Origin: Planctomycetota bacterium
GTDB taxonomy: Bacteria; Planctomycetota; Planctomycetia; Pirellulales; UBA1268
Assembly (NCBI GenBank): GCA_003669585.1
Contig: QWOQ01000005.1
Location: forward strand, 131,846 to 195,845
DNA length: 64,000 nt
Direction of reading: 5' to 3'
Part shown: positions 31,249-54,502 of the stretch, piece after piece
How positions within the stretch are numbered: position 1 is the stretch's first letter
How the letters are laid out: each line of letters starts with the position of its first letter
The notes under the pieces: model-generated
What the model was told of the DNA's origin: nothing
Databases searched by the model: none
The model's input: only the letters and a program-made list of their open reading frames with translations
Program-made: the position numbers and the translations under genes

Positions 31249-31284
31249 ACGCTTGTGGAAGTGCCTTTGACCGGGCTATCTTTT
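31249..31284 (+). repeat. 36-bp module-junction site, copy 1
   Basis: ACGCTTGTGGAAGTGCCTTTGACCGGGCTATCTTTT. Confidence 0.9.
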
Positions 31285-31436
31285 GCGTTCGGGACAATAG
31301 TGACTGTTCTTGAGTCTTGGTGTCGAGTCCATACTGACTTTTGTGGTTCGCTCTACATCGCGAGTCGAAGCGGTCTTCGATTCCCAGTCACGATTCATCT
31401 GCTGGAACAAGACTCCAGTTTTCAACGGAATCTTCC

Positions 31437-32774
31437 ATGCACGAGTCCTTACGATCTCCTTCATCGTCTACCGACACTGCAATTGTTTCGGTCTCCTCTC
31501 GCGAGGCGACTTGTCTGAGCGAACTTTCCCCCCAACAGGTAAAGTCGGGTCTTGCAGCCTGGCTGGGCTGGTTGTTTGACGGACTCGACATGCACTTGTA
31601 CGTGCTGGTGGCGACTCCGTTTGTGGCGGAATTGTTGGGAGTCACCAATCAGAAAGACCCGCAGGTTGGCTACTACAGCTCGTTGATTCAGGCTGCGTTT
31701 CTGATCGGCTGGGCCTTGGGAGGAAGCTTCTTTGGCCGTGTCGCTGATCGTGTGGGTCGCAGTCGGGCTCTCATGCTGACGATCCTCACCTATGCCGCAT
31801 TTACCGGTCTCTCGTTCTTTGCACAGACGTGGTGGCATCTGCTCATCTTTCGATTTTTGGCGGCGCTCGGCATCGGGGGCGAGTGGGCTGTCGGAGCGGC
31901 GCTACTGTCCGAGACGTGGCCGCGTCGCTGGAGGCCGTGGATGGCTGCTGTCCTTCAAACGGGAGTGAATCTCGGTGTGATGCTGGCGGGTCTGGCGATC
32001 TTTTTGCTGGCAGACTATCCGAAGCGAACGGTGTTTCTGGTGGGAATTCTCCCGGCACTGTTAGTGCTTTGGATTCGACAAGCCGTCCCGGAGCCGGAGG
32101 AGTGGCATGCGGCCAAGCAGCAGTCTTTGGACTCGCCGCCGAAGTTTCTCGATCTCTTTCGCGGAGATGTCCGTCGCACGACAGTGCTGACGCTGATCGT
32201 CTGCACACTCTCTTTGACGGGGCATTGGGCCTTTCTGTTCTGGCATCTGCAACATGTGAGAAACCTTCCGGAAATCAGCCAATGGGCCGATGCAGAGAAG
32301 AGCCAGTTGATTAGCCAGATGGTGTGGGTGGTGATGCTGATGTCGATTGTGGGGAACTTTCTGGCTGGATTTATGGCTCAGTGGTTGAAGTACCGGACGG
32401 CCATCGCACTGCTGTTTCTGGGGTACTTTGTGTCGATGACGGTCACCTACTCCACCCCTCGCGATCACCATGCGTTATGGTATTGTTTTGTCCCCATCGG
32501 GTTGTGTCATGGGTGCTTCGCCCTGTTCACGATGTATTTGCCGCCGTTGTTTCCCACGTTACTCAGGACGACTGGAGCCGGTTTCTGTTACAACTTTGGC
32601 CGCATCGTGGCTGGAGTGGGGACGGTGTTCTTTGGACTCTTTTCCAAGGTCGGCGATTCGCGGCTCGCTCTGTTTTATGCGGGTTTCCTTTTTCTGCCTG
32701 CTGCATGTTTTGCCATTCTGTTGCCCGAGCCTCCTGCCGAACCATCGATAATTCCTCCCCGAACAGTTGAGTAA
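31437..32774 (+). CDS. MFS transporter
   Basis: GWLFDGLD, GRVADRVGR, GIGGEW, LFPTLLRTTG. Confidence 0.92.
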   Translation: MHESLRSPSSSTDTAIVSVSSREATCLSELSPQQVKSGLAAWLGWLFDGLDMHLYVLVATPFVAELLGVTNQKDPQVGYYSSLIQAAFLIGWALGGSFFGRVADRVGRSRALMLTILTYAAFTGLSFFAQTWWHLLIFRFLAALGIGGEWAVGAALLSETWPRRWRPWMAAVLQTGVNLGVMLAGLAIFLLADYPKRTVFLVGILPALLVLWIRQAVPEPEEWHAAKQQSLDSPPKFLDLFRGDVRRTTVLTLIVCTLSLTGHWAFLFWHLQHVRNLPEISQWADAEKSQLISQMVWVVMLMSIVGNFLAGFMAQWLKYRTAIALLFLGYFVSMTVTYSTPRDHHALWYCFVPIGLCHGCFALFTMYLPPLFPTLLRTTGAGFCYNFGRIVAGVGTVFFGLFSKVGDSRLALFYAGFLFLPAACFAILLPEPPAEPSIIPPRTVE

Positions 32775-32775
32775 G

Positions 32776-33804
32776 ATGAAAAGTTCTTTCCCGTCGACTG
32801 CGGCCTCTGGCAATTCTGCAGGAGCGTTTCGCTACGACGCACACGACCACTGGGCGCAGCTGCCGCACGGTTGGAGTTGGAATGAAGTCACTGCAGTGGC
32901 TGTGGATTCCCAAGATCGAGTCTTGGTATTCAATCGGGGAGATCATCCAGTGCTGGTCTTCGAACGCGACGGAGCGTTCGTGACTTCTTGGGGCGAAGGA
33001 GCCTTCGCCCGCCCGCATGGGATTACGATCGGTGCGGATGATTGTGTCTACTGCACGGATGACCTCGATCATACTGTCAAGAAATTCACGCCCGACGGAC
33101 ACTTGTTGATGACTCTGGGTACGAGCGGAAAACCCTCGAATACCGGGGCGACGAGCATTGATTATCGCACGATTTGTCACGCTGGTGAGCCGTTTTATTT
33201 TCCGACCAATATCGCATTGGCTGCCGATGGAGCAATCTATGTGACGGATGGGTATGGCAACGCTCGCGTTCATAAGTTCAATGCCGATGGCCAGTTGCTG
33301 TTCTCGTGGGGAGAGCCAGGCAGCGATCCGGGACAGTTTCGTGTCCCGCATGGGATCGCGATTGATCGCGAGGGACAGGTCTTCGTGGCGGATCGCGAGA
33401 ATAGCCGCATCCAGGTCTTCTCGCCCACCGGGGAATTCCTTCGTGAGATGACGAACATGGCGCGTCCGTGTCAGGTTGTATTCGACGCAGCGGGCAATCT
33501 CTACGTCGCTGAATTGGGATACCGCGCAGGCATGTGGCCCGGCACCACCGCTCCGTCGCCGGATGCGACCGGGGGGCGAGTGAGCATCTTCGCCTCCGCT
33601 GGCCAATTACTGGCTCGTTGGGGCGGGGGTGAGAACCCGACAGCTCTCGGAGACTTCTTCGCCCCACATGACATTCGTGTCGATTCCCACGGGGATGTCT
33701 ACGTGTCGGAAGTCGTCATGTCAGCGGGCGGGAATCGCGGACTGGTTTCACCGACCTGTCACAGTCTTCAGAAGTTCACGCGGCGACACGATACGATGGA
33801 ATGA
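32776..33804 (+). CDS. NHL-repeat beta-propeller (peptidyl-alpha-hydroxyglycine lyase-like)
   Basis: RPHGI, YVTDGYGNARV, PHGIAID, VADRENSRIQ, PHDI. Confidence 0.88.
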   Translation: MKSSFPSTAASGNSAGAFRYDAHDHWAQLPHGWSWNEVTAVAVDSQDRVLVFNRGDHPVLVFERDGAFVTSWGEGAFARPHGITIGADDCVYCTDDLDHTVKKFTPDGHLLMTLGTSGKPSNTGATSIDYRTICHAGEPFYFPTNIALAADGAIYVTDGYGNARVHKFNADGQLLFSWGEPGSDPGQFRVPHGIAIDREGQVFVADRENSRIQVFSPTGEFLREMTNMARPCQVVFDAAGNLYVAELGYRAGMWPGTTAPSPDATGGRVSIFASAGQLLARWGGGENPTALGDFFAPHDIRVDSHGDVYVSEVVMSAGGNRGLVSPTCHSLQKFTRRHDTME

Positions 33805-33855
33805 TCTCGTACTCCTTGCGACGATTCACGGTTCATCCACGAGAGGCACAGACCA

Positions 33856-34950
33856 ATGCGAGCATGGCGTTTTTACGGGTTCGGTGATTTTCGTCTCGAA
33901 GAAGTCGCTCCACCCGAGTTGCGACCGCGGCACGTGCTTGTGGAACCATTGTGCGTCCAGCCCAGCGTGACAGAGGCCCAGCTGGCGTTTGGGATTCCGA
34001 CATTGGCGTATGATCGTGTCAAACGACGACTCGAAGCCGATGCTCCACTCCAGTTGTTTGGACACGAGTTCTGTGCCCGCATCATTGAAGTCGGTCCCGG
34101 TGTGACTCGCTTTCATGTCGGCGACCGTGTGGCGGCCCGTGCAAAGCTGCCGTGTGAGCAGTGCCTCTTGTGTTTGAGTGAGCGGAGTTCACTCTGTCGC
34201 ACAGGTCCCGTGATCGGTTTCGACCAGCCGGGTTGTTTCAGTGAGATTGCGCTGCTCCCTGAGATTTCTCTGGTGCGTGTCGATGACAGCATCTCGGACA
34301 GCGAGGCCGCTTGCCTGCAATCTCTGAGCGATAGCGTGGCTGCAGTCGAGACCGCTCAAATTCAGATTGGCAATTCGATCGTGATCTTCGGTCAGGGCAG
34401 CATGGGGTTGGAGTGTTTGCAGATCGCAAGGATCAGCGGAGCAGGGCGAGTTATTACGGTCGACGTGCGTGACGAGTCGTGCCGTATGTCGAAGGAGTTG
34501 GGGGCTGACTACGCTCTTAATGCAACCCGGTGCGATGTCGTGGCTGAGATTCGCAACTTGACCGATGGCATTGGAGCTGACGTCGTATTTGAGTGCGCTG
34601 GAGGAAGTCCCAAGCAAGGGCTGGCTGGAACGCAAACGCTGCGGCAGGCCATCGATACCGCGCGATCTGGCGGCAAGGTTATCGGGGTCTCCTGGTTCGG
34701 TGGTCCGCTGGAACTCGATGTCGATCTCCTGCGTGAGCGCAGCTTGCGCTACATTTTTCCAGACATCAGCACGCAGGCCCATCTCGAACACACCGTCCGC
34801 CTCGTCGCTTCGGGGCGGGTCAACCTGCGTCCCACGATTACGCACGTCTTACAGGGGATTGAGTCGGTGGCCGAGGCCTTTGAGATCACCGCGAACAAAG
34901 GCAAATACAAGGCGATTAACCCGGCCCAGGTGATGTTCCAGCGAGGATAA
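33856..34950 (+). CDS. Zinc-binding (MDR) alcohol/sugar dehydrogenase
   Basis: FGHEF, CEQCLLC...C structural Zn site, GQGSMG. Confidence 0.9.
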   Translation: MRAWRFYGFGDFRLEEVAPPELRPRHVLVEPLCVQPSVTEAQLAFGIPTLAYDRVKRRLEADAPLQLFGHEFCARIIEVGPGVTRFHVGDRVAARAKLPCEQCLLCLSERSSLCRTGPVIGFDQPGCFSEIALLPEISLVRVDDSISDSEAACLQSLSDSVAAVETAQIQIGNSIVIFGQGSMGLECLQIARISGAGRVITVDVRDESCRMSKELGADYALNATRCDVVAEIRNLTDGIGADVVFECAGGSPKQGLAGTQTLRQAIDTARSGGKVIGVSWFGGPLELDVDLLRERSLRYIFPDISTQAHLEHTVRLVASGRVNLRPTITHVLQGIESVAEAFEITANKGKYKAINPAQVMFQRG

Positions 34951-35176
34951 ATCTACCCATGCCCTGCCTGCGAGAAGTCACCGGAACCGTCATGCGTTCG
35001 CAGCGGTGCAGCCCGCCAGCAGGAGCCGTTTCACTTCGAATTCGAGGTTCGCAAGCAGACGAAGGCTAGGGATCGCTTCGTACGCGTGAAGATAAGAACC
35101 TGACACACCTCGGCGAACTGCTCCGTGCCGTGAACGGCCTCAACCTTCACCCAATCGACCGTTCGTCAACCGGCCA

Positions 35177-35212
35177 ACGCTTGCCGAAGTGTCGTTGACC
35201 GGGCTATCCTTG
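35177..35212 (+). repeat. 36-bp module-junction site, copy 2
   Basis: ACGCTTGCCGAAGTGTCGTTGACCGGGCTATCCTTG. Confidence 0.9.
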
Positions 35213-35303
35213 GCTCCGCATTCGTTCGTCGTCTCCTTTCATTCGTCGGGCACTTCCAGATTTGTCTTTGGATTCGTCTCACCATCTTACAAAGGAGAGC
35301 CAC

Positions 35304-36374
35304 TTGATCCGTCACCTCATCACACTCGCAACGTTGATCGTCTTGGGACTTTTCTCCACCGTAAGTGTCCAAGCTGCGGATCTGATTCGCATCGGAATTC
35401 TCGGCATCGATAACTATGGGTCGGTCGCGTACACGGAATTTCTCAACAAGCCGCATGCCGAGGGAGTCTTCGAGGGGATGCGAGTCGTCGCCGCGTATCC
35501 CATCGGCAGCGATGACTACCCAGAGAGCAAGACGCTGGGAGACAAGTGGAAAGATCAGCTCTCGAAGATGTATCAGACTCCGAAAGACCCGAAGGACGCG
35601 GTGCCGCCGATCGATTGGGTCGATTCGCTCGACGAACTGTTGAAGCGCGTCGATTGCGTGATGATCTTCAGCCTCGACGCTCGACTGCATCGCAAACAGG
35701 CGGAATCGGTGCTGCGAGCAGGTAAGAAACTTTTTATCGGCCGGCCGTTGGCGTCTTCGCCGGAAGATGCGGTCGCGATCATGAAGCTCGCCGCCGAAAC
35801 AAAGACCCCGTGCTGGAGCGGTTCACAGCATCGCTTCAGCACCGGCTTCGCCGGGATGGTCAATCATCCTGAAGTCGGCAAGGTGATCGGCTGCGATGTC
35901 TATGGTGGCTGGGATCCGAAGACTCCCGAAGTGGATAAGTTCTGGCTTCCGCTGCATAGCCTCGAAACGCTCTACACGATCATGGGGGGACCGGGCGTCG
36001 TGTCAGTGACGTGTGCTTCGACGCCAACCACCGAATCCATCACCGCCACTTGGAAAGACGGCCGCGTCGGAACGTACCGAGGCATCAAAGAGGGAGCGGT
36101 CAAATACAGCGCGACGGTCTTCGGCGACAAAGGAGTTTCGACGGCTGGCATCTACGGCCACGGCATCCCGGTCATGGGAGTTGTCCCGACGAACGACGAA
36201 TACGTCGGCTACAAACCGCTGGCCACCGAGATCGCCAAGTTCTTCAAGACCGGCCAAGTCCCGGTCCAGCCCGGCGAAACGCTGGAGATCTTCGCTCTGA
36301 TGCAGGCCGCCGAAGAAAGTAAAGCCAAAGGCGGAGCCGTCGTGCCGCTGAAGAACCTTTGGGAAACGAAGTAA
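35304..36374 (+). CDS. Gfo/Idh/MocA-like oxidoreductase, signal peptide
   Basis: IRIGILG, FIGRPLA; RBS AAGGAG before TTG 35304. Confidence 0.75.
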   Translation: MIRHLITLATLIVLGLFSTVSVQAADLIRIGILGIDNYGSVAYTEFLNKPHAEGVFEGMRVVAAYPIGSDDYPESKTLGDKWKDQLSKMYQTPKDPKDAVPPIDWVDSLDELLKRVDCVMIFSLDARLHRKQAESVLRAGKKLFIGRPLASSPEDAVAIMKLAAETKTPCWSGSQHRFSTGFAGMVNHPEVGKVIGCDVYGGWDPKTPEVDKFWLPLHSLETLYTIMGGPGVVSVTCASTPTTESITATWKDGRVGTYRGIKEGAVKYSATVFGDKGVSTAGIYGHGIPVMGVVPTNDEYVGYKPLATEIAKFFKTGQVPVQPGETLEIFALMQAAEESKAKGGAVVPLKNLWETK

Positions 36375-36603
36375 TCGTCGGCGAGTTGCTCCCTTGATTT
36401 GCATTCCGAGCGTCGTTGAACACCCGATGTGGCATTTCGTGTTAGTTTCCAATCGCCTTGAAAATCTCAATTGCGGGAGCAACTGAGCTACGTTTATTTG
36501 TCGTCTGCAACCGCGGTGAAGACAGCCGCATCGAGAGAGTCCGCGAGGTGCAGCCGCGGCACTTTGGCCGGCAACTGGGCCGGCCCGGCTCGTCATCGGT
36601 CAC

Positions 36604-36639
36604 GCGTTTGTGGAAGTGCCGTTGACCGGGCTATCCTTT
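36604..36639 (+). repeat. 36-bp module-junction site, copy 3
   Basis: GCGTTTGTGGAAGTGCCGTTGACCGGGCTATCCTTT. Confidence 0.9.
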
Positions 36640-36839
36640 GGCGAACGTCTACACGCTGCTGTCGAAGAACTCCGGCCAGACGCATGCGCCGCCGAGCTGC
36701 GTCCCATTCCATACGCGGATCAGGCAAGACGATTCGACAATTTGTGTACGGGCGTATATATTCTTGCGAAGAACATGCGTCTTGTTGACCTCCGCTCTGT
36801 GCAGCGGCTTCCCCCGAAAACGACAGTTCTTCCGCAGCC

Positions 36840-37184
36840 ATGAAGACCGCCGCAACCAACCTCCGCCTCACGCCGAGCGAGCGCGACGGGATACGAGCCG
36901 CAGTACAAAAGGCCTGCGGGGAGACGGGGGCAGTCTGGCGGCGGATTGTGGTTTTCGGTTCGCGTACTGATCCGAACCGTCGCGGGGGCGACATCGACCT
37001 ACTCGTCGAGTTGGAGCCAGCAAGACCGGCTGACACGTTTCGTCTGAACCAAAGGCTACGGATGGCGCTTGAAGACGAACTCGGCGAGCAACGCATCGAT
37101 CTTGTCCTCGATGACGGCAACGCGGACAGCGTGTTCCCGACGCTTGCACGCGAGACAGGAGTCGAGTTGTGGTCGAACACCTGA
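36840..37184 (+). CDS. Minimal nucleotidyltransferase (MNT) antitoxin
   Basis: FGSRTDPNRRGGDIDL (GSx10DxD). Confidence 0.88.
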   Translation: MKTAATNLRLTPSERDGIRAAVQKACGETGAVWRRIVVFGSRTDPNRRGGDIDLLVELEPARPADTFRLNQRLRMALEDELGEQRIDLVLDDGNADSVFPTLARETGVELWSNT

Positions 37185-37570
37185 AGAAGTTGCTCACAGA
37201 CCAAATCGCTCTGATGCGGGCCGCGGTTCAAGTGCTCGACGAGTCCCGTATTCGTGTTTCTGCCTTTGCTGATCGGCTGGATAGCGAGCTGACCATAAGC
37301 GAGCGGGAGTCGTGCGAGGCGCTGACTTCTCGCTTCGCGAGACTCAATGATTTCCTGTTGCAGCGAGTGTTTCGCACCCTCGACCAAATCGAACTGGCGG
37401 ACGAAGGGACGGTCCTTGATCGTCTGCAGCGGGCGGAGGCTCGTGGGCTTATCTCCTCCGCTGAGCGTTGGCGGGAGTTGCGACTGCTCCGGAACGCGAT
37501 CGCACACGACTACCTGATTGAGAGTGTCGATCGCGTGCTTCGCGAGTCGCTGATCGCAGCCCCGAACTGA
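37169..37570 (+). CDS. HEPN-domain toxin (possibly C-terminally frameshifted)
   Basis: RNAIAHDY (Rx4H), overlaps MNT gene. Confidence 0.85.
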   Translation: MVEHLKKLLTDQIALMRAAVQVLDESRIRVSAFADRLDSELTISERESCEALTSRFARLNDFLLQRVFRTLDQIELADEGTVLDRLQRAEARGLISSAERWRELRLLRNAIAHDYLIESVDRVLRESLIAAPN

Positions 37571-37811
37571 TCGAGACCGCCGAATGTGTCGGCCGTTATG
37601 TCCATGCAAAGGGCTACAGCGGCGAGAGTTATTAAGCCCGATGACTCCCCGACAATCATCTGAAACTGGTTCTGAGCTTTGACTCAGTGCCCGTAAAGCA
37701 TCCGGGCGACCCGTTGTGTAACGTTTCTTCTGTAAATAACCGGTATGGGCCTGACAGTTTGAAAAGGCGGGTCATAGAGGTTTTCTTGGAAGTGAGCCCC
37801 GTTTTCTTCCC

Positions 37812-38500: not shown

Positions 38501-38876
38501 CGCTGGGTTCGCCTGCATCGTTCTTGTGAACGGCCCACGGATCACACGCTCAGGACCAAAGCCCTCGCCGCGATTGACTCGAAGCTAGCAGAGCCGATTG
38601 TGAAAGGGCAGAGGATCTTCACCTGTGGGCACAGCTTTCATGTCTGGGTGCCGGGGATTGTCGTCGACCACATTCGCGAACTATGTTCGTCGAATAACGA
38701 TGCAATTGGAAGAAAAGCGACAGCGGAAGCTATAAACAAAAACGAGGGGATGCCTGATACGCAGTTCTGTGACACGCGTTATCACCGGACTTCTCAATCT
38801 GAGTTGCCTGCAAGAACAGGTTGGATCTTCGATGGGCATTCAGTCCAGTGCGAGGGTGATCGATTACCCTGTCGAC

Positions 38877-44836: not shown

Positions 44837-44905
44837 TTCCAATTCTCCTGTTCGACTATGATCATCAGTACGACATGTTAGCCAGATTTCGCCACGAAGA
44901 ACGGA

Positions 44906-46093: not shown

Positions 46094-46116
46094 GTGGGCG
46101 ACTTCGTCCTTCTCGA

Positions 46117-48540
46117 TCAGCGCTTTTGGAACAGGTCGGACAGGATCAGGTTCTCGATCAATGAGCGGAGCTTGTAACCTTCCGGCTTGCTGGCAGTTGC
46201 GATGGCCTTGATCTGCGGGGCATCGTCGATCGTCATCACACGTCGCAAGGCATAGGTGGCGAGCTGTTCGACAAACGCCTCGGCAAAATGATCGAGGTCC
46301 TGCAGCAAGAGATGTTTGAACTCGTCTGGTCCTTGGAATTGCTGGCCCTGGAGGAGGACGCCGCTGGCATTCACCAGTGGATTGCTGCCTTGCCCGGTGG
46401 CCACGTGCTCTTCCGTTCGCCAGCCACCAATGGCATCAAAGTTTTCGAAGGCAAAGCCGAGCGGGTCGATCTTCTGATGACACGAAGCACATGTGGAATG
46501 CGTGGCGTGTGCTTCGAGTTGCATGCGGATTGTGGCCTTGGGCTTGTCGCTGAGTGTTGGGGCCAGCGGTTCAACATTTGGCGGTGGTGGCGGGGGAGTT
46601 CGACCGAAGATCGCCTCCGACACCCACACTCCGCGATGCACTGGGCGATGACGCGTCCCATCCGAGGTAAGCGAAAGGATCGCGGCTTGTGTCAGCAGTC
46701 CGCCGCGATGATCCTCGGGCCGCAGCTTAACCTTCTGGAGGCCAGTGGTGGCAAGCGGCGGGAGTTGGTAGTGGGCTGCCAGTCGCGGGTTCGCCATCGT
46801 CCAGTCTGAGGAAATGAACTCGCGCAGCGAAAGATTCTGCGAGTCAACCTCATTGAAGAACGCCAGCGTCTCCAGGGACATACTTGTTTCCAGCCATTTG
46901 TCGTAGCCGGGATAAAGTCCCGGATCGGGCGGAAACATGCCGACGCGATGCAGTTGCAGCCACTGCTTCGGGAACGACTCCGTGAAACGACGATACTTTG
47001 AGTCCGCCAGCATCCGCCGGGTCTGTGATTTCAGTCCGTCCGGATGAGCGAGTGAACCGGCTTGGGCGGCCGCCAGCAGTTCGTCATCGGGCATTGAACT
47101 CCAGAGAAAGTACGACAACCGTGAGGCCAGTTCCCAATCGTTGACCGTGTCGCGTTTCTGACTGACGGAGCCCTCTTCGAGGTAATAGAAGTTTTTCGAC
47201 GTGAGGACGCCGACGAGCGCAGCTCGATAAGCCGTGTCGGGGGTTTCCCCCGCCTGGAGTTCGCTCTCGACGATCGTGACGTAGCGATCGACTTCGGCAT
47301 CGGTCATGGGGCGTCGCCACGCGCGACTGGCGAATCGCTTCAGTTGAGTCCGCATCTCGCCTGGGTCGATTTTCATCGCGGTGATATTTACGGGGAAGAC
47401 ATCCGAGCGTTTCTTTTGTTCCTCGTCGGTGATGATCGGACCTTCCCACTCGATCCAGTCAATGAGCAACATGGGGTAGATCGGCTCACCAGTATCCGTG
47501 AAGAGCAGATAGCCGGTTGGATTGATCCGGCGCATGTCGCGTGTGCTGGTAAAGACACTGCCGCCAGCATGCAGAATGTTGGCCGTGTGATCCCCTTCAC
47601 CTTGCTGCTTAAATGCACCGGCAACTTCATTGATCAAACTTAATCCCCCGGGCGACAACGCGGATTCAAATTCGACGAGGATCGGCTTGTCTTCCGGAGC
47701 AAGAATATCTTGGTCGTAGATCGACTTCTTCAACTCCTGATGCCAAATCGAAAGGTGTGGTGCCGGTCCTTGTGGCGGTTGAAGACCGCTTAGTTGAATG
47801 CGAACTCGATAGTTTCCTGGCTGCGAGATGTTCATCAAATTCTCCCGACGACCGGGAAAGACCTGCCAACGAACGCTCCCCGTGATCTTTTGCTCGGCCA
47901 GTAGTATCTCGTGTCCCTGGTTGGCGTCGCGACGAACAATGGCAGACTTCGTGGGCTGATCCGGAAAGGCGAGATTGAACGACTTCTCAGCGGCGAGGAA
48001 GTAGCGGTCGATATGCGATGGGGAGAGCGAGAGCAACGCGCCGATGCGATTGAAGCCATGCCAACGCGGGTCGTCGTTGAACAGTCCGGGCTGGTTGACA
48101 TCGAGATAGACGCCAAGCAGATCGTAGATCGTATGGCCGTACTCCTCGCGACTCAGTCGGTAGAGCGACACTGGCCCACGCTGGGCCAGCCTCGCGGCTT
48201 CGCCATCCTTGATCCGTGTCGACAGCCAATCGACGACCGCGCCGAGTTCTAAAGCCTTCGGTTGTGGTTCGTTCTTGGGCGGCATCTCACCGGAGTTCAT
48301 CCGAAACACGATCTCGCCCCAGCGCTGAGCCGTGGCTTGATCGACGAATTCGCGAGGGAGAGTATCGAGCCGAAACTTGCCTTCCTGCTTCTGGGCATCA
48401 TGACAACGCTGGCAATATGTCGTGAAAAACGGCTGAATGCTCGTGTCAAACCCAGCCGGTTTTGCCGCGAATGTCGTGCTCGCCGTGCTCGCAAATAGCA
48501 AGATTATCCACAGTGCCAGGGGCGACTTCTGTCGTATCAT
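46117..48540 (-). CDS. DUF1592/DUF1588 family cytochrome c protein (PSCyt)
   Basis: [41 protein letters not shown]. Confidence 0.9.
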   Translation of the reverse strand: MIRQKSPLALWIILLFASTASTTFAAKPAGFDTSIQPFFTTYCQRCHDAQKQEGKFRLDTLPREFVDQATAQRWGEIVFRMNSGEMPPKNEPQPKALELGAVVDWLSTRIKDGEAARLAQRGPVSLYRLSREEYGHTIYDLLGVYLDVNQPGLFNDDPRWHGFNRIGALLSLSPSHIDRYFLAAEKSFNLAFPDQPTKSAIVRRDANQGHEILLAEQKITGSVRWQVFPGRRENLMNISQPGNYRVRIQLSGLQPPQGPAPHLSIWHQELKKSIYDQDILAPEDKPILVEFESALSPGGLSLINEVAGAFKQQGEGDHTANILHAGGSVFTSTRDMRRINPTGYLLFTDTGEPIYPMLLIDWIEWEGPIITDEEQKKRSDVFPVNITAMKIDPGEMRTQLKRFASRAWRRPMTDAEVDRYVTIVESELQAGETPDTAYRAALVGVLTSKNFYYLEEGSVSQKRDTVNDWELASRLSYFLWSSMPDDELLAAAQAGSLAHPDGLKSQTRRMLADSKYRRFTESFPKQWLQLHRVGMFPPDPGLYPGYDKWLETSMSLETLAFFNEVDSQNLSLREFISSDWTMANPRLAAHYQLPPLATTGLQKVKLRPEDHRGGLLTQAAILSLTSDGTRHRPVHRGVWVSEAIFGRTPPPPPPNVEPLAPTLSDKPKATIRMQLEAHATHSTCASCHQKIDPLGFAFENFDAIGGWRTEEHVATGQGSNPLVNASGVLLQGQQFQGPDEFKHLLLQDLDHFAEAFVEQLATYALRRVMTIDDAPQIKAIATASKPEGYKLRSLIENLILSDLFQKR

Positions 48541-48607
48541 CCCGATCACTTTCAGTCTTGGTGACAAATCTGGAATTTGGCACTTTCGCAAACGGTTGTC
48601 TCGGGTC

Positions 48608-48643
48608 AAAGGATAGCCCGGTCAACGGCACTTCGGCAAGCGT
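48608..48643 (-). repeat. 36-bp module-junction site, copy 4
   Basis: Minus strand ACGCTTGCCGAAGTGCCGTTGACCGGGCTATCCTTT. Confidence 0.9.
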
Positions 48644-49128
48644 TGGACGGTTGACGAGGCAACGCTGAGGCCGTTCACGGCACGTCGGTCGGTGCCGTGA
48701 CTTCAAAGCTCACACCCAAACTGCCGCTGTGTGAACAGTTTTTCGCCGCCAAAGCAGCCCTTCCGGAATTCGACCAGCGGTTCGCTGCTTGTGGCCGCCC
48801 TCAACGCGAGCGGATTTCGATCACTGGCAGTTCATCGTGCGCGATCTCTACGTCGTCATGCCCCTGCCTACGCAAGTGCCGTCACGGCGGGTGGTTCGGC
48901 GCAAACACGTCGTGATAGCGGGTGCTTCCGCAGCGGTGGCACGCGAGTCGCACACGACCGAGAAACTCAACAGGTAAGAAGATTAGATTGTAGGAATGCC
49001 GGCGTTCAGCATGGTCGAAAGAATTTGCAGCGAAGCCGTGCGAGGAGGACGCCGCCAGCACCGCAATCAGACACAGTAGAAAACTTTTTTATGACAAAAT
49101 CTCGTTCACAAGCTGTAGAGAGCCCGGA

Positions 49129-50430
49129 TCAAATGCCCGTCAATCGCTCTGTCGAATCGCCAAAACTGTCGAGTTCCAAGCCACCCCACTCCATCAGGCT
49201 GAGGAACAGGCTACACATGCGCCGGTTCGGCGAATCGAGGTAATCGAGCATGCGGCCACCGCGGAGTTTTCCCCCTGCGCCTCCGAGCAGGATGATTGGC
49301 AACTGCTTCGCGTCGTGACTGCCGTGCAACATGCTCGAACAGTGCATGATCGAGGTGTTGTCGAGCAGCGTGCGATCCCCTTCCTTGACTTCTGACATCC
49401 GTTCGCAGAGGTAGGCGAGCTGGGACGTGAAGAACTGGTTGAGTGGGATAAGTTCCGGCGGCTGGGTGTGGGCCATCTGGTGATGCTGATCTTTGGCGCC
49501 GCAGTGAGTGTGGGTTTCGGCGGAGCCGTCGTTGCAATACTTGAGGGTCGCGATCCGGGTGGTGTCGGTGCGAAAGGCAAGCAGCACGATGTCGTTCATC
49601 AGTTTCCAATACTCAGGAATCTCGGTGGGAATCCCGTCAGATGGCCGCGGGCGATCAGGGGCGGCCAGAGTTGGCTGCCAGCCGTTGGCATCGCGCTGAG
49701 TGTCGGTTCTTTTGATGCGACCTTCGATCTCGTGAACGCTGCCCAGGTACTCTTCAAACCGCTGACGGTCCGAGAGGGAGAGCCGCAGACGCAGCGACTT
49801 CGCGTCTTCGAGCACGGCATCGACAACGCGGCGGTCGCCACGATTGCGATCGGTGCGGAAGAGTTGGTCGAAGGCCAGCGCAGGCCGCGTCTCGGTCCAG
49901 GTCGGCGACACCGCCGTGCTCCAGGAAATGTGCGAACTGTAGAGCAAGGGAAGCCCGTCCTGGAGTCCAGGGATCGGTCCTTCACAGCCTAGCACCAGCG
50001 ACGGGATTCGCGTGCGGTCGCCAATTCGCTGAGCCATCACTTGATCAAAACTGACGCCCGTGCGGACTTCGGCCCCCGACAACGGCGCGCCGCTGAGCAT
50101 GTTCCCTGTCTGCATGCAGTGAATGGCGCTCTTGTTGGCCTGCTCGTTCCACAGGCCGCGAAGGAAGACCATCCGCTCTTTCCACGGCTCGAGCGGTTCT
50201 AGGCACGGCCCAAGTTCCATGCCTGCTCCCTCCCCCTTGGCCCACCAGTGATTCGAGTGGAAGCCCATGCCCGTGAAAGTGACGAGCGTGCGAATGGGCG
50301 GCTGATCGCCGGCGCTTGTTTTTTCGCCCGCTGCGAACGAGAGCGATTCGAGCCAGGGCAGAGCCATCGAAACGCCGAGTCCACGCAGCAGGGTGCGTCG
50401 CGAGAAAATGGAAGAAGGTGTGGTGGGCAT
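49129..50430 (-). CDS. DUF1552 protein
   Basis: SRRTLLRGLGVSMALPWLES, LAFRTDTTRIAT, RMCSLFLS. Confidence 0.9.
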   Translation of the reverse strand: MPTTPSSIFSRRTLLRGLGVSMALPWLESLSFAAGEKTSAGDQPPIRTLVTFTGMGFHSNHWWAKGEGAGMELGPCLEPLEPWKERMVFLRGLWNEQANKSAIHCMQTGNMLSGAPLSGAEVRTGVSFDQVMAQRIGDRTRIPSLVLGCEGPIPGLQDGLPLLYSSHISWSTAVSPTWTETRPALAFDQLFRTDRNRGDRRVVDAVLEDAKSLRLRLSLSDRQRFEEYLGSVHEIEGRIKRTDTQRDANGWQPTLAAPDRPRPSDGIPTEIPEYWKLMNDIVLLAFRTDTTRIATLKYCNDGSAETHTHCGAKDQHHQMAHTQPPELIPLNQFFTSQLAYLCERMSEVKEGDRTLLDNTSIMHCSSMLHGSHDAKQLPIILLGGAGGKLRGGRMLDYLDSPNRRMCSLFLSLMEWGGLELDSFGDSTERLTGI

Positions 50431-50451
50431 GAGAACGTCCTTTCGTGAGTG

Positions 50452-53400
50452 TCAGGGGAATGTAGCAGCAGCAGTGGACGCTGGGCGAATGCAGCGGAAC
50501 TGCTCACTGTGAACAATCATGAGTAAGACATCCGACCAGCGGCCGCCGTCGACCATGGTCTTCGTCAGTTCGTTGACCAGCTTCCGATCGGAAAGCTGCA
50601 CAGCGCGTCCCAACGCGTAGCCCGTCAGTTTGTGAGCGAGTTCTCGCAGTAAGTCCTTACGCCGCGGACCGGCGATATAGTCGCGCAGGCCAACGAAGCC
50701 ATCGATATCGACGCCGTCACGCGTGGTTGCCCTGGCATCACCAGGCTTCTGATCTTTGGCGGGCCGCAGTCGGCCGAGGGCGTCGAATTGTTCAAGCGTC
50801 ATGCCGTAGGGATCGATGCGGACGTGGCAGCCGGCACAGGCTGCTTCCTGACGATGCCGCTCGGTGATCTCACGCACGCTGAGTCCGTCGGGCGGAGTCT
50901 CCGGCAGCGGTGGCACGCCGGGCGGGACCTTCGGCAGCCGCTCGCCGATCAGCTGAACCACCCACGCGCCACGCTTGACGGGGCTCGTACGGGACGCCGC
51001 TGACTGCTTGGCGAGCACCGCGCCAAATCCGAGCAACCCGCCGCGACCGTAGGCTGAAACCTTCTCGACGCGACGCCACTGCGGACCGGTGACGCCGGGG
51101 ATCCCGTAGTACTCGGCGAGGAGATCGTTGGCGACCACCGCGTCGGCTGCAATCACGTCGCCGACCGGACGGTCGTTCACGAGCAAATCCGCGAAAAATC
51201 GCACCGGCTCTTCGGCCAGCGCGTCGCGCACAGCCGGCGTGAACTCGGGAAAGTGCTTCAGGTTCCGGCCGTGGTTGGTGACGAAGTCCCGCACGCCCAG
51301 CCAGCGGGCGCCGAACTCCGCGGCCATGCCCTGCACCCGAACGTCGGTCAGCATCCGTCGCAGTTGCTCCTCCATGACCGCCGGCTCGTGGAGCCGCGCG
51401 GCCTTCGCCCGCAGTTGGTCGTCGGGAATCGAGTCCCACAGTAGGAAACTCAGCCGCGTCGCCAGTTCGTCGCCCGAGACCGGCTGCCAGTGCGGTCCCG
51501 GCGCGGGTTGTTCCGCCCGATAGAGGAACCAGGGCGACGACAGGACGCGGGCCATTGCGGCACGGAACGCCGGATCATGCTTGGCGCCTTCGGCACGGTC
51601 GGCGCGGTAAGACGTGAGGATCGCCTTCCGCTCGTCGGCGGCGAGTGGGCGGCGCCATGCTCGGGTAGCGAAGGCTAGTAGCGTCTCCAGATGCCCCGGC
51701 TCCGCAGCGACTTGAGTCGCGAGAAAGGCTTTCTCCTCACGTTTGATCTGTTCCTCGAACAGCTGGATGTAGAAGAACATGATCCGCGCGCCGTCGTTCG
51801 GCTTGCGGTAGTACTGCACGAGTCCCTCATACGCGATCGGGGTGGCGAACGCTTGCTCGCTCACAAACTCCAGTTCGCTCCACAGCCGGTCGATCTCAGC
51901 CCGGCCCGCCTCGTCGAGCAGGAGCCGACGCAGCGGCTCGTCTTCGCGGCGGTACAGGAAGACGCTGCCTTGAGCGTCTCGCGGGATGATCGGTTGAAAG
52001 AGGACCGCTGGCGGGAAGAGAGCACGAAACTCCGCCGCCGGCCGCGCCCGTTCGGCGGCGACGCGTGGATGCACGATCTGCGCGGCATGCGGGTCGCCCA
52101 CTTCAGCTTTGGCGACCGGCTCAGCCAGATTGCCGCCGCCGCCTGTGGCACCGATCAGGAACGCTTCAACGGAGGCCGTTTCCGGACTCGCTTCGTCGAG
52201 GCTCACATCGGCGCGGAGAAACCGAGGCAGCGTGAGCGCCTTCTGCAGATCTGCTGGCAGTTTCGTCAGATCGATGATGACCTCGGTACCGGCAGCCGTG
52301 ACGAGAGCAGACTTTGGCACCGGTCGCCCCTGCGGGTGATGGCCGAATTTGAGTCCCGATGCTTGCTCGACGACCGCCGCCAGTTCTGGATGCTCCGCAA
52401 ACACCAGCGGCGGACCGTCACCACCTTCCAGTCGCAGCCGGTCCCAGACCACAAAGGTGTTGGGCTGAGCTGGCAACGCAACCATACGGAAGAGCGGTTC
52501 ACGGGCGGCGCCTTGCACCCGCTCACGAGCGACCACGCGACGCAGATCCTCCCAGGCGGGAAAGCCATTGCCAACCGCCATGGCCGCATTCTTCCCGTAG
52601 TTGCCTTGAAACAACTGGTCCTGCGCGGCCTTGATCGCCGCCAAGACCGGTGCCGGATCGGTGGTTGCCTCCCGCCACTTTTCTCGAATGTGGTCGAGCA
52701 GTGCCGGAGCCGGACCGGGATCCGGCAGATCAGTGGACGCACTGCCCAGATCGGCCAGCGCCTGCCCCAAGTCTGGAGCCGCGACATGTGACAGCTCGAA
52801 CGAGACTCCGTCGCCACCCGAGGGATGGGCATCGGCAACGCGGCCCGCGACCACTAACTCACCAGCAATCGGACTCGTCCAGGCGATCGCCACAGGTCGT
52901 TTCTGTCCGGGATGCACGAAGACCGATCGTGCGGGCAATGTCGTCCATACACTAATTGGTTCCGCAGCGGAGTTCACGAAGACCGAGGGTTCGGAACCGA
53001 GGCTCCACGATTTCAGTTCGGACTTCCCTGCGATACTGTCGCGGCGTTCGGTGAGGAACGTCGGGAGGGATGTCGTTTCCAAAAAGCTCCAGCGGGCCTC
53101 GTGCTTGTCCGACCAGGGGTTTCCCATCAGCAGATTGGGCACCAGATCGGCGACGCTCCAGGTTCGCCCATCAGCGGCTGTTTCGTGGATCGTCCATTCG
53201 ACGAGCGTGCTGTCGGCCCCGTGATTTTCGTTCGGAAGCACAGTCAAGAGGAGCAGTTCGCCACGCTCGACCAAGACCTTGTGCTCGAAGGGAACAGAGC
53301 CCCCTTCCGCAACTTTGGACTCCGCAAGGACACGTTTCGACGATGCCCAACGGGACTCGATCTTTGGCAAAGCGGCCTTGCGTCGTTGCTTCTCGGCTTC

Positions 53401-54342
53401 AAACTGGGCCGTCTTCTCCCGCCACTGCTTCATCCGAGCATCGACTTCCGCTGACGGTAACGACGAGGCCGTCGTGCCGCTGAGCCCCGCCCAAAGCGCG
53501 GTCAGGTAAGTCGTATTAAGCTTCTCCTCGGCGGCCACTCCAGCGATGTCGGCGGCCCCGCCGCTGGTGAACTTGTCGCGGTAGCGCAGGGTCGCCGCGA
53601 GGTGCGCTGCTAGCGGCGGCTCTCCATTGGGTCCGGCATAGCGAGCGTGGAAACTGCGGAGCGGCTTGAGAGCCTCCTCAGTCCAATCCGGGCGTTCGGT
53701 GGAAGGGGAAAATCGGAAACCGCCGGGCAGGAGCACTACCCGCGCGGCGACGTCACGAGCGGCGTGGTGATAGCGTTCGACCAGTTCGGGCGTGACCGGC
53801 ATCGCCTCCCCGACGTTGGCAAAGCCCTCGCCGCCGACGCTGTCGACGGGAAACTCGCGAGCCTGTGTTGGTCGCATGTCTACGCCGGTGAGATCACGGA
53901 CCGCGTTGTCGTACTCCGTGTTGCTCAGTCGACGCAGCGTGACCTGCCCGGGATCACCGGCCCGCGCGGCCGCCTCGGCATCGAGTGCCGCCGTGATCCA
54001 GCCCAGCAGTTGCTCCCTCTCGGCCTCACTTGGCTGCGGCGCGTCTTTCGGCGGCATGTCGCCCAGTCGCAACCGGTCGGCAACGTCACCGAGCAGTTTG
54101 GGCTTGGCGAGTATCGCCTGGGCGGAGCCAAAGCCCGTGAGATCGAGATCGTTATCGTTGGGCATTTCCCCGTGGCAATTCCCGCAGGACCTGACGAGTA
54201 GCGGCTGGATCTGTGTGGTATACGTTTGCGCGAGGTCGTCTGCACTATCGGCAGACGCGGCCGCGAGTGTGAGAGAGGCAATAAGCAGCACAGCGCAAGC
54301 CGTCCGGTTCCGCCGTGCCCCTACTTCTATGAGGCATCGCAT
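50452..54342 (-). CDS. Large DUF1592/DUF1588 family cytochrome c protein
   Basis: CGNCHG, LRRLSNTEYDN, ELATRLSFLLWDSIPD, RTSPVKRG, CAGCHVRIDP. Confidence 0.9.
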   Translation of the reverse strand: MRCLIEVGARRNRTACAVLLIASLTLAAASADSADDLAQTYTTQIQPLLVRSCGNCHGEMPNDNDLDLTGFGSAQAILAKPKLLGDVADRLRLGDMPPKDAPQPSEAEREQLLGWITAALDAEAAARAGDPGQVTLRRLSNTEYDNAVRDLTGVDMRPTQAREFPVDSVGGEGFANVGEAMPVTPELVERYHHAARDVAARVVLLPGGFRFSPSTERPDWTEEALKPLRSFHARYAGPNGEPPLAAHLAATLRYRDKFTSGGAADIAGVAAEEKLNTTYLTALWAGLSGTTASSLPSAEVDARMKQWREKTAQFEAEKQRRKAALPKIESRWASSKRVLAESKVAEGGSVPFEHKVLVERGELLLLTVLPNENHGADSTLVEWTIHETAADGRTWSVADLVPNLLMGNPWSDKHEARWSFLETTSLPTFLTERRDSIAGKSELKSWSLGSEPSVFVNSAAEPISVWTTLPARSVFVHPGQKRPVAIAWTSPIAGELVVAGRVADAHPSGGDGVSFELSHVAAPDLGQALADLGSASTDLPDPGPAPALLDHIREKWREATTDPAPVLAAIKAAQDQLFQGNYGKNAAMAVGNGFPAWEDLRRVVARERVQGAAREPLFRMVALPAQPNTFVVWDRLRLEGGDGPPLVFAEHPELAAVVEQASGLKFGHHPQGRPVPKSALVTAAGTEVIIDLTKLPADLQKALTLPRFLRADVSLDEASPETASVEAFLIGATGGGGNLAEPVAKAEVGDPHAAQIVHPRVAAERARPAAEFRALFPPAVLFQPIIPRDAQGSVFLYRREDEPLRRLLLDEAGRAEIDRLWSELEFVSEQAFATPIAYEGLVQYYRKPNDGARIMFFYIQLFEEQIKREEKAFLATQVAAEPGHLETLLAFATRAWRRPLAADERKAILTSYRADRAEGAKHDPAFRAAMARVLSSPWFLYRAEQPAPGPHWQPVSGDELATRLSFLLWDSIPDDQLRAKAARLHEPAVMEEQLRRMLTDVRVQGMAAEFGARWLGVRDFVTNHGRNLKHFPEFTPAVRDALAEEPVRFFADLLVNDRPVGDVIAADAVVANDLLAEYYGIPGVTGPQWRRVEKVSAYGRGGLLGFGAVLAKQSAASRTSPVKRGAWVVQLIGERLPKVPPGVPPLPETPPDGLSVREITERHRQEAACAGCHVRIDPYGMTLEQFDALGRLRPAKDQKPGDARATTRDGVDIDGFVGLRDYIAGPRRKDLLRELAHKLTGYALGRAVQLSDRKLVNELTKTMVDGGRWSDVLLMIVHSEQFRCIRPASTAAATFP

Positions 54343-54466
54343 CAGATTCGCTCCTTGGCTCTCGATATGCTTGCACAGTTCGGCCGTCACCGCAGCGACA
54401 TCAACTTTTGCCAGTTTGTCCACAATGAGCTGGTGGCTTTCGACTCCGGCCTTCCACTCTTAGGAT

Positions 54467-54502
54467 AAAGGATAGCCCGGTCAACGGCACTTCCACAAGC
54501 GT
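54467..54502 (-). repeat. 36-bp module-junction site, copy 5
   Basis: Minus strand ACGCTTGTGGAAGTGCCGTTGACCGGGCTATCCTTT. Confidence 0.9.

Follow-up and report, generated by a model that had tools for sequence, protein, structure and literature searches.

The 36-bp site that punctuates unrelated gene modules in this planctomycete contig is, judged by sequence homology, the 3′ terminus (oriIS end) of a rolling-circle insertion sequence (IS) of the IS91/ISCR family, endemic to the family of freshwater planctomycetes in which the genome falls. Taken as a whole, the explanation that we favor and consider probable is that the sites are oriIS ends, that they sit on eroded relics of the element, and that the surrounding island was assembled stepwise. 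The system in this genome looks like a fossil record more than a working cassette machine.

The window, i.e., the whole stretch of 64,000 nucleotides analyzed, was searched for the 36-mer with the TG/CC positions set to N and up to three mismatches allowed. The five matches (31249-31284 +, 35177-35212 +, 36604-36639 +, 48608-48643 -, and 54467-54502 -, with 2, 2, 2, 0, and 0 mismatches in that order) compare with none in 100 dinucleotide-preserving shuffles (0 expected), which confirms the five copies and 0-2 mismatches reported in an earlier note on this DNA. The note's spacings of 3.9, 1.4, and 5.9 kb are likewise correct, as is its statement that all copies are intergenic: counted up to the earliest start codon that the co-oriented gene could use, the gaps are 56, 49, and 200 nt at the forward copies and 43 nt at 54467-, and at 48608- the longest ORF begins at a TTG with a 2-nt overlap with the motif, the first ATG lying 67 nt off. 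Pfam supports the module contents it had named (MFS-NHL-ADH; Gfo/Idh/MocA; an MNT-like gene plus partner; a DUF1592 operon; and a DUF1592-DUF1552 pair), and the abrupt 3′ stop in homology is seen in pairwise alignments of 26 genomic copies, which cease 0-10 nt past CTATC. The TG/CC dimorphism is real as variation but not as two states, the dinucleotide being simply hypervariable (TG, CC, CG, AG, CA, and GG among 67 distinct copies from the planctomycete family). Two features had been missed: homology runs 28 to ~400 nt 5′ of the motif and includes transposase-gene fragments, and a sixth, degenerate copy, with four mismatches to the 23-nt core, lies at 25434-25456 +. The claim that the window holds no transposase is right for an intact gene but not for fragments, of which there are four. 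The features of the window are as follows:

18900..54502, no strand: GC-rich island of 36 kb, 56-65% GC, containing all six ori copies of the window
25434..25456, + strand: degenerate ori core (sixth copy), within the 3′ end of an AcrB-family ORF as called; nhmmer E 3e-9
31166..31284, + strand: relic 1, ~115 nt of the IS 3′ end; motif 31249-31284, core 31258-31280, then TTTT; faces the MFS-NHL-ADH genes
31341..36374, + strand: modules between relics 1-3, MFS-NHL-ADH and a single Gfo/Idh/MocA gene
34988..35212, + strand: relic 2, coding for a C-terminal piece of the transposase (34988-35123), and 89 nt of ori region, motif 35177-35212; faces the Gfo/Idh/MocA gene
36538..36639, + strand: relic 3, a 51-nt transposase-gene fragment (36538-36588), motif 36604-36639; faces the MNT-like/HEPN-like pair
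48608..49010, - strand: relic 4, ~400 nt of eroded IS 3′ part, motif 48608-48643; faces the six-gene DUF1592 operon
49124..54342, - strand: module flanked by relics 5 and 4, a DUF1592 gene (1323 aa as called) and a DUF1552 gene (433 aa), GC 61-65%
54467..54539, - strand: relic 5, ~45 nt of ori region plus motif 54467-54502; faces the DUF1592-DUF1552 pair
57363..57449, - strand: isolated fragment of the transposase gene (aa 384-413 of the intact enzyme) without a recognizable ori

The five relics are 45 to ~400 nt long and 5′-eroded; three of the five have transposase fragments, and all keep the exact 3′ end. Homology of relic 1 to other copies extends from -114 to +5. The fragment in relic 2 has an internal deletion and matches transposase relics at C1:98990-99124 and C8:314572-314690 as well as transposase genes in L055/L056; that in relic 3 is 88% identical over 51 nt to the L058 transposase relic, and relic 4 holds the transposase motif RYH(D/G)VFAPNH at 48891-48980. 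Relic 5 is the exact right edge of the GC-rich island (genome mean 52.5% GC, sd 3.2% per kb), and no ori was found at its left edge (18900). The sixth copy is the only one oriented against its neighbors, and the isolated fragment lies ~300 nt from a tRNA gene (57747-57820 -).

The identity of the site follows from an intact element elsewhere in the genome. A single Y2_Tnp match represents the sole intact HUH transposase (533 aa, C16:237446-239044), with Y2_Tnp (PF04986, 5.7e-26) and Zn_Tnp_IS91 (PF14319, 7.1e-16) domains, both above the Pfam cut-offs. The earlier note had proposed looking for the motif downstream of an HUH/Y2 transposase, and a co-oriented copy is indeed present ~190 nt after the stop codon of this gene, ending ~215 nt past it. 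By its profile scores, the protein is a relative, and not a member, of either curated NCBIfam model: its best match is ISCR clade Ia (240.7 bits; cut-off 925), and it scores 86.9 bits against the IS91 equivalog (cut-off 125).

One of the closest known parallels is ISPps1, an IS91-like element carried by catabolic plasmids including pADP-1. The two transposases are 47% identical in full-length amino-acid sequence, with conserved zinc-binding, HUH (HVHLH), tyrosine (LLRYCARPPF), and RHRY(H/F)GV motifs, and the ISPps1 terminus also stands ~190 nt after the stop, sharing CTTG-N7-TGC-N2-TTGA-N5-CTATCC at equal spacing (18/31 identical). Among the matches listed, 25 of 30 plasmid rows lose homology at that terminus (query 313-320). 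ISPps1 differs in belonging to another phylum, no plasmid-borne relative in the collection searched exceeds 47.5% identity, and ~30 solo 3′ ends are found here against one intact copy.

Intact copies in other genomes set the boundaries of the IS from TAGTGTAC... to ...GGGCTATCCTT, a length of ~1.87 kb. The two ends are unlike and, read directly, not reverse complements of each other (left, TAGTGTACGGGCG..., and right, ...GACCGGGCTATCCTT, seen in 11 and 12 copies, respectively), and the flanks show no evident target duplication, with a fuzzy left boundary. By eye, the left-end palindrome carries apparently compensating changes (ACGGG/CCCGT versus ACGGC/GCCGT). Short subfamily-specific inverted repeats are present in the ori ends; across 67 ori copies no conserved hairpin or consensus structure was predicted, and single-copy ori folds were no better than those of shuffles. 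The bases after CTATC in genomic copies are C (23/26), T (24/26), and T (21/26), and a comparison between genomes pairs an occupied site reading CTTT with CTGT at a site without a recognizable ori. The IS91/ISCR reading of the earlier note, with ends stacked in tandem beside unrelated modules and followed by a CTTG-like tetranucleotide, is therefore upheld by the copy behind the intact transposase, the ISPps1-homologous terminus, the CTT that follows CTATC, the accessory nature of the genes downstream, and the loss of synteny at the ori terminus in related genomes.

The genome-wide search that the note had called for returned ~27-34 copies, all but one of which are 5′-truncated, transposase-associated relics. 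Outside the intact gene, all transposase fragments start at aa 360 or later, and no fragment of the left end or the first 1130 nt of the IS was found elsewhere in the genome; the 5′ extent of the copies varies from -28 to -440 nt, and the 3′ end is fixed. Upstream of the core, relics are 72-92% identical to each other (best pair, 92% over 226 nt) and hence old, and neighboring copies in the window belong to different subfamilies.

Nearly all of these relics lie in DNA that is rich in GC and looks foreign, clustered in one orientation and facing a co-oriented gene. Of the downstream 3-kb windows, 23/27 fall in the top 20% of GC, and all nine neighbor pairs at ≤6.5 kb share an orientation (random mean 1.05, maximum 6, in 5000 trials); in several arrays, each inter-operon gap is occupied. 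With genes called by a crude codon-usage caller, the downstream gene is co-oriented at 24 of 27 copies, and contexts with genes in the same direction only give 18 versus 1 by recount (p 7e-5 when tested at 17 versus 1). The downstream genes share no function and are accessory rather than core genes. The note's other suggestion, that the copies might be recombination sites, is not sustained: the genome has seven PF00589 tyrosine-recombinase genes, none in the window (where the note had seen no intact recombinase), and the nearest to any of the 26 scored copies lies ~10 kb away, from the intact element, by comparison of coordinates.

The element family is widespread among related genomes, with transposase matches in 86 of the 120 searched. 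Within one family, the genera show strong conservation of the ori core; a search of 16 genomes from the order's other families returned no motif. Tandem same-orientation ori arrays recur in other genomes, with a weaker orientation bias (14/20, p 0.06), and a copy binned with another genus matches the intact one at 99% identity. The DUF1592-DUF1552 module is 86-88% identical over ~5.1 kb to five genomes of genus g7 and 81% to one of genus g8, with most other genera at 71-73%, and no ori or transposase was found within 0.2-1.5 kb of flank at the six g7/g8 loci. The MNT-HEPN module is 89% identical to that of another genus without an ori there, orthologs of window modules at 11 loci of other genera have no ori, and the MFS-NHL-ADH trio occurs together again, in changed order, in one genome of another genus.

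The earlier note had proposed comparing strains for module gain or loss at CTATC/CTTT. Between genera, synteny does break where the ori ends. Outside the window, this genome and one of another genus share, at 93% identity, a block of relic, ori, and CBM2 gene; in that second genome, the block and a further relic-ori adjoin a 92%-identical ortholog of a gene that stands elsewhere here without an ori, on a contig (G050) that may hold a chimeric join at the repeat because the comparison genomes are fragmented metagenome bins. Homology in this comparison begins at CT(T/G)T beside the ori end, and alignment to ori-less CBM2 homologs begins within a few nt of it. In the window, the two population- or strain-level differences seen lie off CTATC/CTTT: one is a break at 34988, where relic 2 starts on its 5′ side, 189 nt upstream of its motif, and the other a 1786-bp absence beginning 112 nt downstream of relic 3. 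In a strain of 97.8% identity, the same junction of ori2 and the Gfo gene retains more of the relic.

Set against known systems, the planctomycete element resembles IS91, IS801, and IS1294 in having two different ends and a CTTG/GTTC-type tetranucleotide adjoining the ori end (PMC13181058); by the same account, IS91 inserts at CTTG/GTTC, T being the second base, makes no duplication, needs only its final 82 bp plus the tetranucleotide, and carries neighboring DNA by one-ended transposition in 1-10% of events. It departs from them in its sub-threshold IS91 equivalog score, in a C-T-T-N tetranucleotide with T favored at the last position, and in having just ~45 nt ahead of the transposase start, too little space for an orf121-like gene. 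For ISCR1, PMC6218425 describes variable genes that follow oriIS, are oriented with it, and are driven by outward promoters, the intergenic gaps measuring 0-1211 bp. With our case, ISCR1 and other ISCR elements share the unrelated, co-oriented genes behind the ori end, the short gaps, and the truncated copies flanking modules; the outward promoters of the ISCR1 ori region have here only a candidate counterpart, the transposase falls well short of the clade Ia cut-off (240 versus 925 bits), and the setting is an island in the chromosome of an environmental bacterium, with neither an integron 3′-conserved segment nor resistance genes. Integron gene-cassette arrays are similar in outline only, as tandem same-direction modules split by a short conserved site. 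Here no tyrosine recombinase, and so no IntI-type enzyme, lies nearby, the sites are ends of an IS, with remnants of its transposase, instead of attC hairpins, and each module has a leader of its own, some comprising several genes. Helitrons share the HUH rolling-circle mechanism, gene capture, and a fixed 3′ end; they differ in being eukaryotic and in their helicase-fused transposase.

For the favored explanation, the HUH transposase would nick the junction of the ori end and the C-T-T-N tetranucleotide, replication would run back through the transposase gene and stop at the other terminus, and overshoot past that terminus would take upstream genes along by one-ended transposition. The fixed 3′ end of copies that vary in 5′ extent, and the ori-linked blocks standing in unlike contexts, bear on such movement only indirectly. 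Whether ISCR-style events of this kind built the island stepwise, elements having come with or beside modules and their transposase parts having then decayed, we judge to be evenly balanced. The surviving ends may persist because the ori end, as in ISCR1, reads out into the downstream gene. The alignment of ori copies offers a candidate outward promoter (TTGnnG-N18-TATCCT), with TATAAT at this position in one copy of another genome; a sigma-70 consensus scan of the motif called no promoter. Several observations weigh against this explanation: the relics are old, adjacent window copies are of different subfamilies, the strain-level differences avoid CTATC/CTTT, module orthologs at 11 loci of other genera and the DUF1592-DUF1552 pair at six loci stand without an ori, the left edge of the island has none, the motif has neither a consensus promoter nor a conserved hairpin, and the orientation bias drops in other genomes.

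A rival explanation has full-length copies inserting independently into intergenic gaps of an island built otherwise, with the transposase later deleted, only gene-direction insertions tolerated or useful (through polarity or an outward promoter), and no cargo ever carried. Adjoining relics of unlike subfamilies, the progressive erosion after insertion at one site in the close strain, modules without an ori in other genera, and the separate boundaries of the MNT-HEPN presence/absence, 112 nt from the ori, all suit it, and the stronger bias of the old relics here (24/27 against 14/20 elsewhere) fits a survivorship filter. We regard it as possible, if rather doubtful: nine same-orientation pairs against about one expected call for an extra hot-spot assumption, every inter-operon gap is filled in several arrays, the foreign DUF1592-DUF1552 block has relics on both sides, the ori-linked CBM2 block stands in unlike contexts in two genera, and 5′ parts of the IS survive nowhere even though internal deletions should spare them as often as 3′ parts. 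Cassettes still on the move, in contrast, would have competent relic ends served in trans by the intact transposase, with replication through the upstream module to the next ori/CTTN and re-insertion at another ori junction. The last 34 nt of relic 5, one base off the ori of the intact element, the small sequence requirement of IS91 (PMC13181058), the near-identical copy in another genus, and the arrays in other genomes speak for such movement. It is very unlikely, with no near-identical duplicated cassettes in the genome, ori upstream regions that vary by subfamily, and a single transposase gene for ~30 ends; contigs of four metagenome runs break at the ori repeats, so joints between ori junctions cannot be shown there. 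The earlier note's proposal of non-autonomous elements mobilized in trans may hold for the past; for mobilization today, the age of the relics, the mixed subfamilies of neighbors, and the position of the strain breaks are unfavorable. A host regulatory site, whether a regulon operator or an alternative-sigma promoter with no tie to mobile DNA, would place the motif upstream of co-oriented genes and conserve its core across genera, as seen. We reject it as next to impossible: the motif is continuous with transposase-gene fragments and the intact transposase and shares homology with the end of ISPps1, the genes behind it lack a common function, orthologous promoters in other genera lack it, and so do the genomes searched from other families.

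ISCR elements have been blamed for resistance-gene clusters, and no ISCR transposition has been demonstrated experimentally, according to PMC6218425. The freshwater planctomycete chromosome presents an ISCR-like architecture in which ordinary accessory genes are the modules: ori ends read into co-oriented genes of unrelated kinds, transposases are truncated, and the arrays stand in tandem in DNA that looks foreign. With one intact transposase and many natural substrates, this harmless system is suited to the study of the mechanism and of the outward-promoter idea. Should the relic ends be live, which we think quite improbable, the HUH transposase would nick any ori/CTTN, copy the upstream module to the next ori junction, and re-insert the circle at another, each ori supplying a promoter, and planctomycete accessory islands would grow in an integron-like manner via a rolling-circle enzyme instead of a recombinase. 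The finding suggests that ISCR-type gene accretion is a general and old route to genomic islands, reaching beyond clinical plasmids.

The 36-bp site that punctuates the window is the fixed 3′ end of a family of rolling-circle insertion sequences, and the copies there are relics in which this end has survived erosion. A pattern search finds exactly the five copies claimed in the earlier note (2, 2, 2, 0, and 0 mismatches) and no match in 100 shuffles, and the gene content proposed around them agrees with Pfam searches of both strands:

31249, + strand: copy 1, followed by MFS, NHL, and zinc-ADH genes
35177, + strand: copy 2, followed by a Gfo/Idh/MocA protein
36604, + strand: copy 3, followed by a Pol-beta-type nucleotidyltransferase and a small partner
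48608, − strand: copy 4, followed by a six-gene block whose first gene encodes a DUF1592-family protein
54467, − strand: copy 5, followed by a DUF1592/DUF1552 pair
25434-25456, + strand: a sixth, degenerate core

The abrupt 3′ end of homology claimed for these copies is borne out by an alignment of their flanks, in which similarity is lost within a few bases of CTATC and, upstream of the motif, goes on in two or three sequence subtypes. Across the whole genome (4.27 Mb, 18 contigs), the 23-nt core occurs 21 times at up to 3 mismatches and 26 times at up to 4; one further indel variant is clear from a profile search, which also picks up roughly 3-7 weaker fragments. CTATC is followed by C in 23, T in 24, and T in 21 of the 26 copies, then by any base; this C-T-T-N fits the tetranucleotide described for IS91 (PMC13181058), which is of the CTTG/GTTC type with an invariant T at position 2.

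A copy placed just downstream of an HUH/Y2 transposase, as the earlier note had proposed looking for, exists on contig C16, ~190 nt after a co-oriented 533-aa ORF that carries Y2_Tnp and Zn_Tnp_IS91 domains and is the sole Y2_Tnp match in the genome. Among NCBIfam models, the ISCR clade Ia model scores best for this protein, with the IS91 equivalog behind, both under their curated cut-offs. It shares 44-47.5% identity with plasmid-borne IS91-like transposases, including that of ISPps1. The alignment with the ISPps1 protein is full-length at 47% identity and preserves the zinc-binding, HUH, and tyrosine motifs. The likeness extends to the ISPps1 terminus on pADP-1, where CTTG-N7-TGC-N2-TTGA-N5-CTATCC, ~190 nt after the stop codon, has the spacing of the motif and 18 of 31 bases identical. 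When this pADP-1 stretch was compared with a plasmid collection, 5 of the best 30 of 46 records had the same downstream context, and in the other 25 the match broke off between query positions 313 and 320, where the sequence reads ...CTATCC. Because of the transposase adjacency, the ISPps1 terminus match, and this loss of homology at CTATCC, the 36-bp motif is an oriIS-type terminus (hereafter, ori) of an IS91/ISCR-family element.

The length of the element, ~1865 bp, is set by intact copies found elsewhere in the same bacterial family; its left end, TAGTGTAC..., lies roughly 45 nt ahead of the transposase start codon, and its right end is ...GGGCTATCCTT. The GC content of the element is 67.5%. 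At 47% identity to ISPps1 and under both NCBIfam cut-offs, the element is a new member of the IS91/ISCR family, and a distant one. Literature searches on IS91 in Planctomycetes and on ISCR elements, oriIS, and rolling-circle gene capture turned up no account of the element, nor of arrays like these in Planctomycetes; one hit, PMC2754498, was discarded because it matched only through IS911. Two side observations concern the intact copy on C16. A 278-nt stretch at C16:239429-239706, 340-620 nt upstream of it, is repeated at 96.8% identity at C18:325318-325595, with a 72% copy nearby. Three short contigs of a comparison genome binned in another genus (G088; C572, C786, and C855, loci L069 and L119) are 96-99% identical to this genome and include the intact IS with 157 nt of common left flank, after which the sequences diverge; these are either a recent transfer or close-strain contigs put in the wrong bin.

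The intact gene aside, all transposase fragments in the genome derive from the last third of the protein, and searches with a left-end profile and with ten diverse intact copies (first 1300 nt of each) found nothing else in the genome. Homology upstream of the motif extends for 28 to ~440 nt at 72-92% identity, with the 3′ end fixed. The window contains the following fragments:

34988-35123: transposase fragment upstream of a motif
36538-36588: transposase fragment upstream of a motif
48891-48980: transposase fragment upstream of a motif
57363-57449: orphan transposase fragment beside a tRNA gene

A divergent small gene (peptide PLCEQFF...) was considered for the conserved upstream stretch and rejected, as the stretch belongs to the co-oriented transposase gene, of which it is the C-terminal coding part and 3′ untranslated region. 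On a metagenome contig that matches window 34988-36536 at 97.8% identity, the ori of copy 2 and the Gfo gene meet at the same junction, a longer transposase relic (~aa 270-520) is retained, and a different, divergent gene stands upstream where the window has ADH; therefore, relic erosion goes on after insertion, and the gene upstream of a relic can vary between close strains. A second repeat, CACCACCA-GATTCTCTCTCTGAAAGTGGTGC-TGTTTAAGGGGG..., lies at window 31122-31165 (+) and has 20 copies genome-wide. ORFs with HTH_Tnp_1 and rve domains next to a full copy (C8:657.6 kb) identify it as the end region of an IS3-family element. Of the 20 copies, four are found upstream of an IS91-type ori relic at a distance of no more than 350 nt, in either orientation, and three of these four coincide with the point where relics of the 'TG' subtype are truncated on the 5′ side, which suggests that the IS3-family element inserts into, or helped truncate, IS91-type elements.

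The relics cluster in one orientation within foreign-looking DNA and read into co-oriented genes. By gene calls from our own crude codon-usage caller, the downstream gene is co-oriented with the ori at 24 of 27 copies (the 27 represent 17 independent loci); where both neighbours run the same way, co-orientation prevails by 18 to 1 (binomial tests), the 18 including the intact element with its own transposase upstream. The downstream genes are of diverse accessory types (PSCyt/DUF1549, DUF1501, two sulfatases, ECF sigma factor, HNH, LamG, MOSC, CBM2, and FGGY kinase among them). Nine pairs of neighbouring copies are less than 6.5 kb apart, where random placement gives 1.05 such pairs on average and never more than 6 in 5000 trials; all nine share an orientation. 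For 23 of 27 copies, the downstream 3 kb rank in the top fifth by GC (genome mean, 52.5%), and all six window copies lie inside one 36-kb island of 56-65% GC (~18.9-54.5 kb). Copy 5 marks its right edge; the left edge is without an ori, and the idea of an island bounded by the site on both sides was dropped. A tRNA gene at 57747-57820 (−) stands ~300 nt from the orphan fragment and 3.2 kb outside the island, and the DNA between it and the island has low or typical GC and contains an FGE-sulfatase-family gene.

Several other explanations of the site were weighed. A regulon or promoter site unrelated to mobile DNA was rejected once the transposase link was found. An integron-like recombinase system was rejected as well: of seven tyrosine-recombinase genes in the genome, none lies in the window. 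Replication-direction bias would account for a shared orientation, and it was rejected: of 27 copies, no more than 15 have the ori on the strand that carries most genes of the region, and 19 agree in strand with the sign of GC skew, so that orientation tracks the immediate genes, not the region, and GC skew only weakly. An ancient exaptation conserved across genera was also rejected, because orthologous loci in other genera have no ori: none was found in the flanks of window-module orthologs at 11 loci. The terminus itself is widespread within the family, with the motif in 21 of 24 other genomes (11 genera) and transposase matches in 86 of 120 genomes; a search of 16 genomes outside the family but within the order did not find the motif. 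Other genomes of the family also have truncated transposases with ori in tandem arrays of one orientation, and one dense mixed-orientation cluster of fragments; the downstream gene is co-oriented at 14 of 20 copies from 19 genomes, a weaker bias than here.

On whether the modules are cargo, the evidence points both ways. In favour, five genomes of one other genus match the DUF1592-DUF1552 pair, which lies between copies 5 and 4, at 86-88% identity over ~5.1 kb, and a single genome of a further genus matches it at 81%; the figure for most other genera is 71-73%. The match begins just past the signal peptide and ends with the stop codon, and the pair has 61-65% GC, as do the matching loci. In this genome, copy 5 lies on one side of the pair, 125 nt ahead of the likely ATG, and a transposase relic on the other, from ~120 nt past the stop. 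Against cargo, no ori was found in the flanks of the six loci with the pair at 81-88% identity, nor in those of the 11 window-module ortholog loci. Also in favour, a block of relic, ori, and CBM2 gene outside the window matches a contig from another genus at 93% identity over 3.6 kb; on that contig the block is followed by a second relic and ori and then by 780 nt matching this genome at 92%. The 780-nt match is a gene sited elsewhere in this genome with no recognisable ori, and its homology starts at CT(T/G)T by the ori end; in ori-less CBM2 homologs from two further genera, alignment starts a few bases, or ~35 nt, from the ori end. Against cargo again, the MNT-HEPN module (36726-37708) is 89% identical in DNA and 93-94% in protein to an other-genus contig without any ori; the pair has its own sigma-70-like site at 36734-36762. 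No donor was accepted for the six-gene operon, which has only paralog-level matches (65-71%), and an array on contig C2 is uninformative on boundaries, its 644-aa gene being 89% identical to one other-genus genome with no ori in the flanks examined. The comparison genomes are fragmented bins, in which a misjoin at a repeat is possible. At one locus of another genus (L046, G085:C326), NHL, ADH, and MFS homologs occur together in a different order at 62-76% protein identity, and therefore the first window module is a functional unit rather than three unrelated genes.

Strain differences, also counted against cargo, do not fall where the earlier note had proposed to look for them, exactly at CTATC|CTTT: one break lies within relic 2, and the other begins 112 nt after copy 3, where the only bridging contig with a presence/absence difference lacks 36752-38537 and has 16 other bases instead. 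This form is seen in the lake populations, with a single contig in each of two metagenome runs. Contigs of the metagenome runs break at every ori copy and therefore could show neither junction variants nor circles; window parts lacking bridging contigs carry no evidential weight. Several metagenome contigs join the paralogous DUF1592-family genes at the two ends of the six-gene block (38877-41303 and 46117-48609; 39430 to 46691 and similar), with short sides of ~30 nt. These were set aside as repeat or other-organism artefacts, and could be recombinant or deletion forms or come from other organisms. Window 37927-38489, with matches of ~69-79% in many of 120 family genomes (often two places per genome) and a paralog at C13:308253-308878, overlaps a 271-aa ORF (38072-38887; no Pfam match) and looks like an unnamed conserved gene.

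The guess of IS91/ISCR-type ends was essentially right at the level of mechanism; its strong form, in which cassettes are mobilised in trans today, has a low probability. IS91 initiates at the ori end, terminates at the other end, and overshoots in 1-10% of events (PMC13181058), and in ISCR1 outward promoters drive variable genes that lie downstream of oriIS in the same orientation (PMC6218425). By analogy with this mechanism and precedent, elements arriving again and again, together with gene modules or next to them, would have built up the island; their transposase genes would have decayed afterwards, and the ends may persist where they are harmless or helpful to expression. A candidate promoter, TTGnnG-N18-TATCCT, covers the most conserved columns of a 67-copy alignment and fails a consensus scan; a conserved hairpin in the motif has no support. 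In the RNA runs found, only 5-14% of sampled words were present. As a single-copy anecdote, at L116 (G050:C89, 782-830) the ori end is GGGATATAATTCTTT, not GGGCTATCCTTT, giving a consensus TATAAT 18 nt past the motif's TTGCCG, with a 783-aa gene directly downstream. The relic arrays resemble ISCR-type accretion but lie on the chromosome of an environmental planctomycete and carry non-resistance cargo; by this comparison, they look like ISCR-type accretion transplanted to such a chromosome.
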